A stretch of DNA of 64,000 nt from contig JBDHUY010000003.1 in the NCBI GenBank assembly GCA_039809385.1, positions 1-64,000 on the forward strand. Reading direction: 5' to 3'. The translations under genes were made by a program, and so were the position numbers. Position 1 is the first letter of the stretch; each line of letters starts with the position of its first letter. Positions 15,584 through 45,503 of the stretch are shown in pieces. The notes beneath the pieces are model-generated. The model had not been told where the DNA came from. It saw nothing but the letters and a program-made list of their open reading frames with translations, and ran no database searches. Source of the stretch: Candidatus Altimarinota bacterium. Lineage in GTDB: Bacteria; Patescibacteriota; Gracilibacteria; JBDHUY01.

Positions 15584-15664
15584 GAGTAGGGTAGTAATCA
15601 GCCCCCCAAGAAGCGTCAGTCAGAGGCAGATTCTCAAGCGACATGCGCAATAATACGTTGCCCC

Positions 15665-15696
15665 ATACCAAATACGTAATACCAGATACTTTATAC
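15665..15696 (+). repeat. Five ATAC heptads in the nrdJ leader
   Basis: ATAC at 15665, 15672, 15679, 15686, 15693. Confidence 0.75.
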
Positions 15697-31248: not shown

Positions 31249-31536
31249 GCACGAGCAGCGGTCAGCTCAACGGAGCCCCTTCGGGGCGATCAGTAACAAT
31301 AATGAATTTTAAACAATTTGTATCAATTTCCGGGAGTTTCTATCTATTTTAATTTTGGTATAAAGTATTACGTATTATGTATGGGCTGTCGGATGAATCC
31401 TATCAGCTGCCCGTTCAGTCACTCTGAGCGAAGCGAAGAGTCTGTCCCCCTTCCCCGATTCCTGACTGTCTGAACTTCCGTTGATCAGTGTGCCGCCTCA
31501 GAGTAGAATCGAAACGGTCTTCCTATCTATGTTCTT

Positions 31537-41491: not shown

Positions 41492-41686
41492 GAGTTCTGA
41501 AAGTATTGGTAATGTTATCAGAAAGAGAGACCCATCTAAATGGCGTCTCTCTTTTTAAAACATATATCTTTTTTGTTCTTGTTTTACATTATCCCCTTGT
41601 CTCTTCCTGCCAAAATGACAAAAGGCTATTGAAGAAAAAAAGAGACTTGTGCTATAATCAAACGAAGATATTACTTTTCTGTGTTT

Positions 41687-42490
41687 ATGACGAGCGAACA
41701 GATTCGCATTGTTATCCCATCCGATCTTCGGTTTTCCAACACTATTCGTAATTTCGTAGGAGACCTTCTCAAAGTTCTCGATGTTCAGGAATTGTGGGTA
41801 AATCGCATGATCCTGGTGATGGATGAACTCTTTATGAATGCCGTCAAATACGGCTCGAGCGGTATTCAGGATAATGTGTATGTAACGGTCGACCTGCTGG
41901 AAAACGAGGTCGTTTTTTATATAGAAGACATGGGAACAGGTATCAAAAAAGTAGACCCCGAAGACTTACACCAGATTATCGGCGTCAATCGCGACGATCC
42001 GTCGTTGGCTAAAACTTCGGGTCGGGGGTTGTCGATGATCGTTTCCAACTGGACCAATGGCTATAATATCGAAAAAAGTGAAAAAGGTGGGATAAAGATA
42101 ACTGTACGCAAGCAGCTGGAGGATATCGTCGAAAAACCCAAGAGCATGGAACAGGTCACGCTCGAATCGATGCCGGACGTAGCGGTAGTCAATTTCTCCG
42201 AGAAATTCGACGTTCACGATTCGGAGCGCGAAAAAACTTTGATCAGAGACGTTGAGGAATCGGACAAGGCCATGTTTATCTTTGATCTGCATCATCTGGA
42301 TTATGTCAATAGCGTTTTTATCGGACTATTAGCCAAATTGTTTAATATCATCTCCAAAAAGCAAGGCCGGGTTGTGATTATCAATATTTCTGATACGATC
42401 AAAGATGCATTGAAGTTAGTAGGGCTCACTGATATAATACCCGTCGTACAAAATCTGGAAGAGGCGCGTCACGCGCTAAGCGGCGTTTAG
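41687..42490 (+). CDS. RsbW/SpoIIAB-like kinase fused to a STAS domain
   Basis: N-box ELFMNAVKYG, DMGTG, SGRGLSMI; C-terminal LDYVNSVFIG..LKLVGL. Confidence 0.88.
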   Translation: MTSEQIRIVIPSDLRFSNTIRNFVGDLLKVLDVQELWVNRMILVMDELFMNAVKYGSSGIQDNVYVTVDLLENEVVFYIEDMGTGIKKVDPEDLHQIIGVNRDDPSLAKTSGRGLSMIVSNWTNGYNIEKSEKGGIKITVRKQLEDIVEKPKSMEQVTLESMPDVAVVNFSEKFDVHDSEREKTLIRDVEESDKAMFIFDLHHLDYVNSVFIGLLAKLFNIISKKQGRVVIINISDTIKDALKLVGLTDIIPVVQNLEEARHALSGV

Positions 42491-42528
42491 CAAACTTACT
42501 AATACTTTTGTTTCTTATCTTTGTTCTT

Positions 42529-42939
42529 ATGGCAACCGTTGTCACCACCGAAGTTTTTGGTATTGAAAATTACCCTTCCGTCAAAGTCGTGGTCTTTCGC
42601 GGCCAGATCGACGAGTCCAATCTGCCCGAAGTCTCCAAAGTACTGGACGCCTTTGTGATCGATCCTGCCACCAAGCAGATCAATCAGGAGACCAAATATA
42701 TCGTTCTGAACTTCAACGAGTTGTCGTTTATCAACAGTAAAGTTATCGGATATCTGGCCTCGCTGTATTCGACTGCTTCCGAGCACGGTAAAAAATTGCT
42801 GATTATTGTCGATCCGAAAGAGAACGAGACGATCACCGATATCCTGTCTCTGGTCGGACTGACTACGATTATCGATCATTATCCGAATCTGGAGGAAGCG
42901 ATCGAAGTCGTCAAAACCGATATCGAACAGGATAAATAA
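42529..42939 (+). CDS. STAS-domain anti-sigma factor antagonist
   Basis: GQIDESN, LSFINSKVIG, ILSLVGL. Confidence 0.88.
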   Translation: MATVVTTEVFGIENYPSVKVVVFRGQIDESNLPEVSKVLDAFVIDPATKQINQETKYIVLNFNELSFINSKVIGYLASLYSTASEHGKKLLIIVDPKENETITDILSLVGLTTIIDHYPNLEEAIEVVKTDIEQDK

Positions 42940-42954
42940 TATATTTTGTCCGAT

Positions 42955-43941
42955 CTACCGGTATTCCTCGAGCAGTTTTTCCAGCTCGTCTGTATTTTTC
43001 AGAGCTTTTTTTTCGATCTGTTCTTCTCCCAGTAAAACGTAGCAGCGATGGAGTTGGTATTGAATATTGTCTTTGAGCCAGGCTTTATAGGCCGGTCGGA
43101 CCGAAATGGTGAGATGCAATTTTTCTTTAACCATTTTTTGCAAAAAATGCCGCGCATCACCCCGTTCGAGCTTGCCGCCCGGCAGGCCGTTTTCGTACAA
43201 TATCAATCGATCTTGCCAGTGAATTTCCGCCAGTGGATAGCGATACTCATAGGCAGCTTTGGATAAACGTTTAGTTGCGACTGCCAGATGGGGCTGTGCG
43301 TTTTTGTAGAAATCGCAGATCTCCTGTAACGGACAGAAATGACACAGGGGGCGAGTGGTAACGCACGTGGAAGAGGCCAAGTCCATCATAGCCTGATTTA
43401 CTTTGGCCGATGAAGTTTTTTTATAACCTTCCTGTATCGCTTTCAGCAGCCGTTTTCCTGCTTCCCCGGTTTCATCCAGCTTCGTGACACCCAAGAAGAC
43501 GCGGCCCGTGATGCGTTTGATATTCGTGTCCAGCGGGATAGTTGGTTGCCCATAGGCAAAAGAAAGAATGGCATTGGCGGTATACTCTCCCACACCGGGC
43601 AAAGCGCGCAGATCGCTATAAGTTTTCGGGAATTCCCCGCCGTATTTTTCCATCAGTATTTTGGCCGCTTTGAGCATATTCCGACCCCGGTTGTAGTACC
43701 CCAGTCCCTGAAAGTAAGGCAGAAATTCCTCCCACGAGGCCCGCGCCAGCGAGGCAATATCCGGAAACCTCTCGATAAAACGGCTATAGTACGCTACCCC
43801 GCGACTCATCTGCGTTTGCTGCAGCAAGACTTCCGACACCCACACCTTATATGGATCTTTCACGTCGCGGAAAGGCAGGGAACGGCGGTTTTTCTGGTAC
43901 CAGTCGAGCAGCTTCTGGAAAAACAACGAGATTTTAGACAT
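42955..43941 (-). CDS. mutY: A/G-specific adenine glycosylase
   Basis: WVSEVLLQQT, GLGYY, LPGVGEYTA HhH, C-x6-C-x2-C-x5-C cluster. Confidence 0.95.
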   Translation of the reverse strand: MSKISLFFQKLLDWYQKNRRSLPFRDVKDPYKVWVSEVLLQQTQMSRGVAYYSRFIERFPDIASLARASWEEFLPYFQGLGYYNRGRNMLKAAKILMEKYGGEFPKTYSDLRALPGVGEYTANAILSFAYGQPTIPLDTNIKRITGRVFLGVTKLDETGEAGKRLLKAIQEGYKKTSSAKVNQAMMDLASSTCVTTRPLCHFCPLQEICDFYKNAQPHLAVATKRLSKAAYEYRYPLAEIHWQDRLILYENGLPGGKLERGDARHFLQKMVKEKLHLTISVRPAYKAWLKDNIQYQLHRCYVLLGEEQIEKKALKNTDELEKLLEEYR

Positions 43942-43973
43942 TTTTAATGTGGAAAGGCGTAGAGTGGGGGACG

Positions 43974-44008
43974 GTATAAAGTATTATGTATTACGTATAA
44001 TGTATCAG
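43974..44008 (+). repeat. Five GTATnnn heptads (left arm of four-helix-bundle gene)
   Basis: GTAT at 43974, 43981, 43988, 43995, 44002. Confidence 0.85.
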
Positions 44009-44383
44009 ACAAAGGGGCAAAAGATATACGCATTTACCGATTTACATGCTTGGCAAGAAGCCCACAAGCTTGCGATTCTGGTGTATCAGGTAACCAAAAC
44101 TTTTCCCAAGGAAGAATTGTTTTGCCTTACCAGTCAGATGAGATGCGCTGCTATATCGATCATATCTAATATCGCAGAAGGCTTTAGTCGAAAGTCTCTC
44201 AGAGAAAAGATTCAATTCTATGCGATTGCTCAAGGTTCCAATACCGAACTTCAAAGCCAATTACTTATCGCATGCGATGTCGGATTGATATCTAAATCTA
44301 CTCTCTCGCAAATCACGACACAATCTCTGATTGTTCACAAACTGATTAACGGTCTTATTAAACATTGCCAAAAGTACACATAA
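44000..44383 (+). CDS. Four helix bundle protein (23S rRNA IVP/Avd-like)
   Basis: FTDLHAWQEAH, FPKEE..LTSQMR.AA.SI.SNIAEG, A.GS..EL.SQL. Confidence 0.93.
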   Translation: MYQTKGQKIYAFTDLHAWQEAHKLAILVYQVTKTFPKEELFCLTSQMRCAAISIISNIAEGFSRKSLREKIQFYAIAQGSNTELQSQLLIACDVGLISKSTLSQITTQSLIVHKLINGLIKHCQKYT

Positions 44384-44388
44384 ATTAT

Positions 44389-44423
44389 CCCATACATTAT
44401 ACATCATACTTTATACCTAATAC
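44389..44423 (+). repeat. Five nnnATAC heptads (right arm, inverted)
   Basis: ATAC at 44392, 44399, 44406, 44413, 44420. Confidence 0.85.
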
Positions 44424-44433
44424 TTCTTTCCCC

Positions 44434-44985
44434 CTAGTACTCGATCCCCTCCCGACTCGGGACGTGTTTTTCGAAATAGTGGCGGCGGGGTACCATTTCG
44501 GTAATGAGGTCAGCTTGTTCGACGAGTTCGGGGGGCGGGTTTCGGCCGGTGCATACGAGTTCGCCGCGGTGATTCCAGATAGTGACGAGGGCCAAAAAAG
44601 CATTCTTATCGACAACACCCAAGTCGATTGAAGAATTTATTTCATCGAGAATGATCAAGTCGTAGTTTTCGGTGAGCAGTTGTCGAAAGATCGCCAGTCC
44701 CCGCTCTCCTTCTTTTCTGTCTTCGTCGTTGACGCCGAAGCGGAATTTGCCGATCTTGTTTTTCTCGTTCGGTCGTTCCAGGACACGGTCGGCGCCGGTC
44801 ACGAAGAAAGGAATCTCGAGTTTTTCGAGCGATGCGCGTTCCCCGCTTTCCGAACCCTTGTCAAAGAACAGAACCGCGACTTTCTTCCCGCGTCCTTTGG
44901 CTCTGACTGCCAGTCCGATGGCAGCGGTGGTTTTTCCTTTGCCAGTGCCGATGTAGAGTTGGAGGTACCCGGGGGGAGGAGTCAT
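44434..44985 (-). CDS. cobO: ATP:corrinoid adenosyltransferase (CobO/BtuR family)
   Basis: YIGTGKGKTTAAIG, ILDEIN, TGRN, ADLITEM, REGIEY. Confidence 0.93.
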   Translation of the reverse strand: MTPPPGYLQLYIGTGKGKTTAAIGLAVRAKGRGKKVAVLFFDKGSESGERASLEKLEIPFFVTGADRVLERPNEKNKIGKFRFGVNDEDRKEGERGLAIFRQLLTENYDLIILDEINSSIDLGVVDKNAFLALVTIWNHRGELVCTGRNPPPELVEQADLITEMVPRRHYFEKHVPSREGIEY

Positions 44986-45239
44986 GGGAAAGTTTGTTAG
45001 GATTGCAAAAAAATGGTCTTCGCGGAAAGATCAGTTGTATAAAGTATAATGTAGAAAGTATTAAGTATAACGCAGTTCGAGATCCAGTACTTACTGCTTT
45101 ATAACTTTATAAACTTTAGGGACTTTTAACTTTTTTCTCTCCTGTTACGTCCTATTCGAAGCGTCTACGAAAGTTGCGAGATAAAGAGCATGGGCCCTTC
45201 TTTGCTAAAGCTACGAAGGGCATCCCGCCCATGGCGGGA

Positions 45240-45314
45240 TGGTGGGTCGGCTGGGGCTCGAACCCAGAACCATCAGCTTAAAAGGCTGTTGCTCTACCAT
45301 TGAGCTACCGACCC
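45240..45314 (-). tRNA. tRNA-Lys(TTT)
   Basis: GGGTCGG acceptor, CAGC-CTTTTAA-GCTG anticodon arm, GTTCGAG, CCA. Confidence 0.97.
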
Positions 45315-45426: not shown

Positions 45427-45503
45427 TGGTGTTCCCGGCGGGACTTGAACCCACAACCTCAGCCTTCGCAGGGCTGCGCTCTATCCAATTAAGCTACGGG
45501 AAC
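45427..45503 (-). tRNA. tRNA-Arg(GCG)
   Basis: GTTCCCG acceptor, CAGCC-CTGCGAA-GGCTG anticodon arm, GTTCAAG, CCA. Confidence 0.96.

Follow-up and report, generated by a model that had tools for sequence, protein, structure and literature searches.

An intervening sequence (IVS) in the 23S rRNA of Leptospira, carrying an open reading frame (ORF) of the family PF05635, was reportedly described by Ralph and McClelland in 1993. To our knowledge, two crystal structures exist for PF05635, a large multi-copy family for which no function is known except in diversity-generating retroelements (DGRs). The present work concerns a PF05635 gene of Candidatus Altimarinota bacterium, found in a stretch of 64,000 nt (the window; positions 1 to 64,000 of contig JBDHUY010000003.1, assembly GCA_039809385.1), where it lies between two inverted arrays of five heptads with a GTAT core. 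The gene and its inverted arrays are one unit that recurs across phyla with unit-specific cores, and these cores are also spread through the intergenic DNA of the host, with a fixed polarity to gene boundaries. The host assembly (G000; 1.87 Mb, 26 contigs, 95% complete), in which the window is contig C3, belongs to a class made up of small genomes.

Ribosomal IVSs share with this cassette the PF05635 ORF, a size of about 430–480 nt without a transposase, and inverted repeats at the ends that can pair into a long stem. In Coxiella, as far as the excerpts of PMC4990558 go, three to four GACAGAT heptamers precede the start of the S23p ORF, within a terminal-repeat stem of about 28 bp; heptamers ahead of that ORF are noted there in one species. 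The cassette differs from ribosomal IVSs in lying in the spacer of protein genes, antisense to its neighbours, rather than in helix 45 or 25 of 23S rRNA, and in that its repeat is found at 64 other sites of the genome, a dispersal not reported for rRNA IVSs.

Repetitive extragenic palindromic (REP) sequences and the REP-associated tyrosine transposases (the REPIN–RAYT system) are said to have been described by Nunvar in 2010 and by Bertels and Rainey in 2011. The cassette is RAYT–REPIN-like in its build: inverted copies of a repeat stand on both sides of the gene, the genome contains this repeat in other intergenic places too, singly or as hairpin doublets, and each gene lineage, paralogue or homologue, has its own repeat core. 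It differs in that the protein is a four-helix bundle of 127 aa without an HUH/Y1 nuclease motif, and in that a series of 7-nt units, with a 4–5-nt core, takes the place of a single palindrome.

As far as we know, heptamer repeats scattered through genomes have been reported time and again since 1990, always without a partner protein, and the STRR (short tandemly repeated repetitive) sequences of Calothrix are further examples. The published ones include TAACTGA in Beggiatoaceae, Cyanobacteria and Bacteroidetes (PMC4679880), TTTTGAA in Nostoc 7120 (bioRxiv 10.1101/2022.06.06.494920), and GGGAATC in Xanthomonas and GGGGA(T/C)T in Nostoc (PMC4692102), and the available parts of these three reports state the binding partner as unknown. 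Like the arrays considered here, they are intergenic tandem 7-nt units, often found a few nt from start codons, singly or in convergent pairs. They differ in that the units of the window are degenerate (four fixed and three free positions) and the arrays limited to about five units. No link to PF05635 is drawn in the text available of these sources, in which “23S”, “S23” and “helix bundle” (PMC4679880) and “S23” (PMC4692102) do not occur. Within a partial coverage of the literature, which leaves room for earlier notice, no statement was found that PF05635 genes are generally bracketed by inverted heptamers or matched by dispersed ones.

Structure of the cassette

The elements of the cassette and its two neighbours are as follows.

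43966–43971, plus strand: outer G-run GGGGGA, left end (direct reading)
43974–44008, plus strand: left array (GTATnnn)x5, GTATAAA GTATTAT GTATTAC GTATAAT GTATCAG (direct reading, Tandem Repeats Finder, pattern scan)
44000–44383, plus strand: PF05635/TIGR02436 gene, 127 aa, ATG at 44000, TAA at 44381–44383 (ORF and profile match)
44389–44423, minus strand: right array, on the plus strand CCCATAC ATTATAC ATCATAC TTTATAC CTAATAC, that is (nnnATAC)x5 (direct reading)
44429–44434, plus strand: outer C-run TCCCCC, right end, overlapping the cobO stop codon at 44434–44436 (direct reading)
42955–43941, minus strand: mutY-like glycosylase gene (HhH-GPD), left neighbour (ORF and Pfam)
44434–44985, minus strand: cobO, ATP:corrinoid adenosyltransferase gene, right neighbour (ORF and Pfam)

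The initial annotation had described five GTATnnn units over the start of the gene, five nnnATAC units after its stop and the outer GGGGGA and TCCCCC, and all of them are read in these places. It had also placed the gene antisense between the co-directional cobO and mutY, and this is the case, since the gene is on the plus strand and both neighbours are on the minus strand. The position 43960 that it gave as the start of the element has to be corrected, as it precedes the G-run; the ORF has its first codon at 44000, and the GTG at 43949 is not its start.

The start of the ORF falls inside heptads 4–5 of the left array, which thus overlaps the start codon and, read on the minus strand as (nnnATAC)x5, lies 32 nt upstream of mutY. 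The right array begins 6 nt past the stop codon and reads on the minus strand GTATTAG GTATAAA GTATGAT GTATAAT GTATGGG, and the last C of TCCCCC is the first base of the cobO stop codon on the other strand. A repeat search aligned the inverted arms over 39 nt at 77% complementarity and over 26 nt at 88%, and Tandem Repeats Finder gave a period of 7 on both sides. A four-unit GTAT pattern matched nine times in the window and not once in 100 shuffles of it.

The protein

The relationship of the gene with the family found in 23S rRNA IVSs and with Avd, claimed in the initial annotation, was borne out by profile and structure searches. PF05635 was matched with an E value of 1.2e-33 and 116 bits (cut-off 33.8) over profile positions 2–106 of 106, and TIGR02436 with 111.5 bits (cut-off 24). 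The only Pfam matches were PF05635 and bAvd, no Y1/HUH transposase family being among them. The scores for bAvd (PF22296; 27.5 bits, cut-off 40) and for the Avd equivalog NF033474 (18.8 bits, cut-off 80) were below threshold, and the neighbouring genes include no reverse transcriptase, template repeat or variable repeat, so the protein is not a DGR Avd. The ORF is intact, with the conserved residues of the family present. None of the PADLOC defence models matched the protein at E ≤ 0.01.

The AlphaFold2 model (predicted local distance difference test score 95.3) is a four-helix bundle with helices at residues 16–32, 37–63, 67–93 and 99–125. In Foldseek searches the best matches in the PDB were 2GSC, the solved structure of a Xanthomonas PF05635 protein, with template modelling (TM) scores of 0.82–0.87, and 2RLD, with 0.74–0.77, each with chains A–E. 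DGR Avd chains followed at 0.74–0.79 (all scores query-normalised). Avd (PDB 4DWL, 8UB7) is thus of the same fold and superfamily; it is a positively charged pentameric barrel that contacts RNA, and an Avd-binding RNA element takes part in the DGR ribonucleoprotein, as given in the parts available of PMC6182149 and bioRxiv 10.1101/2023.10.23.563531. In the literature found, PF05635 itself is named only in the DGR context (PMC10053308). By likeness to relatives with five chains, the window protein is presumably a pentamer too.

Arrays beside paralogous and homologous genes

The host genome yielded 11 PF05635 matches, corresponding to ten genes, of which two are damaged. When all six frames of the genome were searched by hmmsearch with a custom profile (E ≤ 10), these 11 pieces alone came up, and no PF05635 remnants beside solo arrays. 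With a strict array rule, which asked for four units in a row and 4 or more invariant columns, five of the ten copies had both arms, three had one and two had none, at period 7; some paralogue arrays extend into the 3′ end of the ORF and were clipped by the flank length used. In all five two-armed paralogues the arms had inverted core matches of 4–5. The flank cores differ from one paralogue to another: GTAT in the window copy, and AGCG/CGCT, CACT, ACAGC/GCTGT, AGTC/GACT, TTAAT, TGAA/TTCA and AAATTC in others, the last in two copies, one of them degenerate (under the strict rule the core labels were GTAT, AGC-type, ACAGC, ACTT, TTAAT, TGAA and AAnTnC). Six of the ten copies are co-directional with both neighbours, and the window copy alone is antisense to both.

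Among 40 relatives of the class, 24 have PF05635 genes, with 0–11 copies per genome. The PF05635 matches of four of them (G029, G034, G012 and G014) contain 1–5 in-frame TGA codons and those of the host none; because of these codons, the class seems to hold lineages that read TGA as a residue.

A wider sample was gathered by searching genome and metagenome collections with the window protein as query, giving 31 + 68 = 99 loci, 89 of them complete, with 70 unique proteins. Their hosts belong to several candidate phyla, Bacteroidota, Ignavibacteria, Alpha- and Betaproteobacteria, Phycisphaerales and Bdellovibrionales. A lack of arms around homologues had been named beforehand as a finding that could overturn the proposal; arms were present, 57 of the 70 unique loci having at least one flanking array and 27 having arrays on both sides. 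The period of these arrays was 7 (90 arrays) or 8 (17 arrays), never 6 or 9. Arrays were found at 39 of 60 boundaries of PF05635 genes; the corresponding figures were 24 of 172 for the boundaries of the other ORFs of these loci and 1 of 890 for flanks that had been shuffled. In 24 of 30 cases, cognate arms agreed in inverted orientation at no fewer than 4 core positions; this was so in 7.8% of 870 non-cognate pairs and, when cognate arms were compared in direct orientation, in 2 of 30.

The closest homologues (55–64% identity) are scattered over several candidate phyla and Bdellovibrionales, some with a GTAT core, and in close homologues the ATG likewise falls within the last GTAT unit. The “S23 ribosomal protein” gene of a Calothrix plasmid is flanked by AGGGTGT x4 and ACACCCT x4, and four of six Moorena copies examined have inverted arrays with other cores (locus L337 has none). 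In Nostoc sp. PCC 7120, plasmids gamma and alpha (L192, L193) carry identical four-helix-bundle genes directly behind an ISL3 transposase gene, with heptads in direct, not inverted, orientation (ACTT-type upstream; ACTT-type followed by CTGCC-type downstream).

Correspondence between the core beside the gene and the dispersed cores

The core found beside the gene was compared with those dispersed in the same genome. Matches to a GTAT x4 pattern numbered 51, 47, 8, 9 and 1 in five genomes with GTAT arms, two of which (L096, L098) were assigned to GTAT by eye only, and 0–1 in five genomes with other cores, the reversed controls giving 0–1. In the same way, TTCGA x4 had 60 matches in the genome with this core and 0–1 elsewhere, and CCTA x4 had 69 and 0–8, respectively. 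The two matches of GTGCTT x3 were both next to the gene, with none in other genomes.

The genes accB and accC normally form one operon. In the four Xanthomonadales genomes listed below, which contain exactly one PF05635 gene each, this gene lies between accB and accC, so that the cassette interrupts a conserved operon across genera.

L331–L334: loci of Xanthomonas euroxanthea, X. arboricola, Rhodanobacter thiooxydans and Luteimonas sp. R10

A GGGAATC-type x4 array lies upstream of the gene (GATTC-type in Luteimonas, G053), and an inverted ATTCCC-type x4 array lies downstream in three of the four; Luteimonas has the upstream array only. Genome-wide, GGAATC x3 matched 113, 94, 52 and 11 times in the four genomes, with 0 in the control. 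These genomes had been reached by a GGGAATC pattern scan, and the test itself was prompted by the repeats of PMC4692102, where, in the part available, about 186 GGGAATC arrays are given for Xanthomonas, 70 of them in convergent pairs, with their function unexplained.

The heptad arrays of the host genome

Scored as five in-phase cores with at least 18 of 20 core matches, GTAT arrays occur 65 times in the 1.87-Mb genome, which sets the cassette within a family of dispersed sites. The exact five-unit pattern had 35 matches in the host genome against 0 for the reversed control, and none in 39 of the 40 class relatives, the single hit in the remaining one being a perfect GTATTAA tandem. In a scan blind to the core, 115 five-unit arrays of period 7 were found, compared with 0–8 at periods 5, 6 and 8–11 and none in shuffles; with four units, 353 heptad arrays were found and 3 in shuffles. 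The main core classes of the 353 are ATAC/GTAT, CAAA, CTCC and CAGC. Judged on a crude map of 1,684 ORFs, 285 of the 353 (81%) are intergenic, as are 12% of random positions.

Three further GTAT arrays of the window, all solo, are the following.

45037–45071, plus strand: five-heptad array (GTAG in one unit), on the non-coding strand of cobO and 51 nt upstream of that gene (pattern scan)
15662–15696, minus strand: five-heptad array; a 748-aa ORF starts 26 nt beyond it (pattern scan)
31358–31392, plus strand: four exact units, 18 of 20 core matches (pattern scan)

An inverted partner within 450 nt was found for 8 of the 65 GTAT arrays and for none of the other 57. The initial annotation had inferred a self-recognising RNA–protein element. 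The arms are not specific to this insert, the 65 GTAT arrays being dispersed in the genome and mostly partnerless. It had also proposed that five repeats match five subunits. One part of this proposal stands, since five is the commonest count in the host genome and the structural relatives have five chains, and the other does not, since the arrays beside homologues have 4–8 units. In the host, 50 of the 65 GTAT arrays have five units, and seed-free GTAT runs of 3, 4, 5, 6 and 7 units number 13, 20, 53, 11 and 2, a sharp peak at five. Considering all cores, 125 of the 353 arrays have four units, 174 have five and 31 have six.

Concerning the polarity of the GTAT arrays, a G-rich flank resembling GGGGGA stands ahead of 37 of the 50 five-unit arrays, and this outer side is near a gene boundary, mostly at 6–17 nt. 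The boundary that it faces is the start of a divergent gene in 40 of 65 cases (median distance about 12 nt) and the stop of a co-directional gene in 23; two arrays are inside ORFs. On the far side, the next gene is usually 60–300 nt off. The left arm occupies a start-proximal place before mutY, the same placement that those 40 arrays have before other genes.

This placement brings in a reading in which the association is coincidental: the GTAT arrays would be promoter or leader elements of host genes (here mutY), recognized by an unrelated factor, and the PF05635 gene would merely lie between two of them. The 40 start-facing arrays agree with it, as do an array upstream of a tRNA gene and the heptamer repeats published just upstream of start codons (PMC4679880, in the part available); the left array also contains a weak sigma-70-like match towards mutY, not above chance. 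GTAT arrays are nevertheless found at only about 2% of gene boundaries, yet the window gene has an inverted pair abutting both its start and its stop. Arms of other cores are found likewise at paralogues and at homologues of other phyla, 23 of the 65 arrays face a stop codon, and the family-wide boundary counts given above (39/60 against 24/172) point the same way. This reading is therefore considered highly improbable.

Several observations on the arrays stand apart from these counts. Intergenic spacers of the host are end-to-end mosaics of arrays with different cores (e.g., C1:53307-53393, C17:34381-34442 and C2:147665-147741), the typical order being a GCTGT/CAGC array, then a CTCC array, then ATG. 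Long, near-perfect heptamer tandems were seen as well: (AGTCCAA) about 19x, (CAGCRAT) about 21x and (AGTCAAA)n, at C11:17350-17488, C8:31045-31191, C10:50520-50591 and C4:38319-38381, and at contig ends C10:72930-72987, C14:1-66 and C22 (downstream of 68). Because several long tandems reach contig ends, heptad arrays probably break the assembly, and the true numbers of arrays would be higher than those counted. At about 55 nt, one CAAA-type array (AATCTCAAAGCTCAAAATCCAAATGCCAAAATAAACTCAAATATCC...) with near-identical flanks is present in at least five places (C1:21572, C13:46142, C3:149637, C5:71566 and C6:22266) and looks like a larger dispersed repeat with heptads inside. In C1:119487-119706, a GTAT array precedes a tRNA gene by about 60 nt and a GCTGT array follows it closely, so that arrays bracket RNA genes too.

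Periodic reading by the protein or pairing of the arms

Taken together, the evidence tips the balance, by our estimate, towards the locus being an IVS-type cassette in an intergenic spacer, the protein-coding member of the GTAT heptad family, whose product is the cognate binder of that family. A PF05635 pentamer would probably read one heptad per subunit, as predicted from the periodic arrays and the pentameric relatives. It would bind the five heptads of one strand, RNA or DNA, with one 7-nt unit per subunit; 7 nt of single strand per subunit around an Avd-like barrel would be a geometrically plausible arrangement. Binding at the left array would autoregulate the PF05635 gene, because the start codon lies in heptads 4–5. 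The dispersed arrays may be targets at which the protein regulates or processes gene boundaries, or else REPIN-like copies that it maintains. Where both arms are on one transcript, they may form a stem of the rRNA-IVS kind, a potential substrate of RNase III, and as the arms can pair, processing of the RNase III type remains compatible with the binder reading. The three leading readings considered here, this one and the RNA-level and mobile ones below, overlap.

The trp RNA-binding attenuation protein (TRAP) is an 11-subunit ring that reads RNA triplets. The proposed reader would work like TRAP-type rings, with one short motif per subunit, free spacer bases and binding at the start region leading to (auto)regulation. 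It is unlike TRAP in its unrelated fold and in the presumed 5 subunits and heptads, as opposed to 11 subunits and triplets.

The period and the core were also examined on the protein tree, which is poorly resolved. Period 7 or 8 clusters on it (5 changes compared with 10.3 in shuffles; none of 500 shuffles as low), and related proteins tend to have related cores, as seen with AGCG, AGTG and ACAGC among three paralogues and in a GATTTA clade. The grouping of GTAT-core proteins in one clade was tried and rejected, since it gave 6 changes for 7 rows, two of them labelled by eye, and 377 of 500 shuffles were as low.

A different reading is that of an intervening element acting purely at the RNA level, in which the arrays exist to pair, RNase III cuts the stem as it does in 23S rRNA IVSs, the insert is thereby harmless to the host transcript or processes it, and the protein is dispensable cargo or decaying. 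As the initial annotation had anticipated, the arms can pair in a cobO–mutY transcript: they do so in both the minimum free energy and the centroid structures predicted for the RNA of the cobO-to-mutY strand, with a z-score of -2.65. Over 27 loci, the mean arm–arm duplex energy was -29.1 kcal/mol, against -10.3 kcal/mol for full shuffles, and 26 of the 27 surpassed 95% of their shuffles. In the genomes G041 and G042, the nine dispersed GTAT places fetched are inverted doublets with 15–25-nt spacers, which fold as hairpins of -26 to -44 kcal/mol and fill the space from one stop to the next start. An in-line position between co-directional genes is taken by six of the ten host copies and also by the Xanthomonadales copy, next to accB and accC. 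In Coxiella, according to the excerpts of PMC4990558, RNase III cuts the heptamer-containing 28-bp stem in vitro, and its authors consider S23p probably not expressed and the RNA part of more importance.

Other results disagree with pairing as the reason for the arrays. Only 4–5 of the 7 positions of each heptad are fixed, and the variable ones add no pairing: their mean complementarity between arms was 0.61, compared with 0.59 in column shuffles, and 0 of 27 loci reached p ≤ 0.05. In duplex energy, column shuffles were surpassed by only 2 of the 27. A stem needs neither the 4 + 3 pattern, nor the peak at five units, nor a period that follows the clades of the protein. The 57 partnerless arrays and the intact window ORF with its conserved family residues are also at odds with it. 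We consider the purely RNA-level reading rather unlikely.

The duplex energies, the hairpin doublets and the Coxiella data all weigh against the cognate-binder reading, and so do the following points. For CAAA (about 53 arrays) and CTCC (about 35–40), which are among the largest array classes of the host, the 95%-complete assembly offers no clear cognate PF05635 gene. The array-free loci amount to 13 of the 70 under the strict rule, and only 27 have both arms. Five units are not general, given the 4–8 at homologues and the 14–26 units reached in Xanthomonas and Nostoc (PMC4692102, in the part available). Dispersal is not obligatory, because the GTGCTT repeat of G048 occurs only beside its gene. 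GTAT and GAAT labels are interleaved on the weakly resolved tree, and co-inheritance of gene and flanks alone would yield some link between protein and core. Lastly, the pentamer is derived from relatives, and binding, oligomeric state and expression of the window protein are predictions.

Mobility and surroundings of the cassette

The arrays may also be viewed as the terminal inverted repeats of a mobile cassette, used by a recombination or retro-homing machinery to which the PF05635 protein would perhaps be accessory, like Avd; solo arrays and doublets would then be decayed or non-autonomous derivatives, similar to miniature inverted-repeat transposable elements, without a host role. Agreeing with this are the scattering of the closest homologues over phyla, some of them sharing the GTAT core, the patchy copy number in the class, the doublets without ORF that mimic cassette ends, and the Nostoc plasmid copies behind the ISL3 transposase gene. 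The G-run side is 6–17 nt from a boundary for starts (40) and stops (23) alike, as would be the edge of an inserted segment.

On the other hand, no transposase, integrase or reverse transcriptase gene is next to the window copy or the nine other host copies. In the DNA contigs of four sequencing runs there was no joint spanning the cassette (empty site) and no indel in the arrays; one contig covers 42996–45600 with one difference, and the low-depth contigs of those runs break near the left array. No PF05635 remnants were found beside solo arrays in the six-frame search, and the phage collection gave no match. The Xanthomonadales copy is fixed between accB and accC over four genera or species and looks vertical and stable. 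The mobile reading is thus taken as improbable. The gene cobO was found in 5 of the 40 relatives, and the 3.5-kb loci around these five contain neither mutY nor a PF05635 match.

Promoter and terminator scans of the 1.5-kb region around the cassette gave nothing above chance. They included the following feature, not significant because the region has four such sites against 2.1 expected.

44450–44462, plus strand: weak terminator-like hairpin with a T-rich tail just past the right end, a possible 3′ end of a cassette transcript (hairpin scan)

An unusual ribosome-binding site was considered as the reason for the TCCCC tract and discarded, the 3′ end of the host 16S rRNA being the normal CCTCC. 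Rfam covered no array between 43000 and 46000, where it matched two tRNAs only. The other surroundings, assigned with Pfam and Rfam, comprise STAS proteins, ProRS (prolyl-tRNA synthetase) and tRNAs. Beyond the 3′ end of mutY, at 41681–42939, there are an HATPase_c_2 + STAS fusion and a separate STAS protein (anti-sigma-factor/antagonist type), and two tRNA genes lie upstream of the cobO array, at 45243–45314 and 45430–45503 (minus strand).

Implications

Extended to the family, the binder reading would be that PF05635 proteins are sequence-specific pentameric readers of heptad (sometimes octad) arrays, each subunit recognizing a 4–5-nt core at a 7-nt pitch in single-stranded RNA or DNA, with a core that evolves with the protein, and that each gene has its own repeat “regulon” or replicator population. 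This wider proposal is advanced tentatively, as a possibility somewhat short of even. The cognate relation between gene and repeat joins two loose ends, the function of PF05635 and the partnerless heptamer repeats. If it is true, PF05635 would be the missing binding partner of the heptamers of Xanthomonas, Nostoc/Calothrix, Beggiatoaceae, Bacteroidota and candidate phyla, the ORFs of rRNA IVSs would be explained, and a natural re-targetable module of nucleic-acid recognition would be at hand; should the core preference be readable from the protein sequence, this would be a compact programmable nucleic-acid reader. The ORF-bearing rRNA IVSs are recast as one habitat of a much wider family of cassettes, and, in the small genome of this host, the relation with heptad arrays accounts for a large share of the intergenic DNA.

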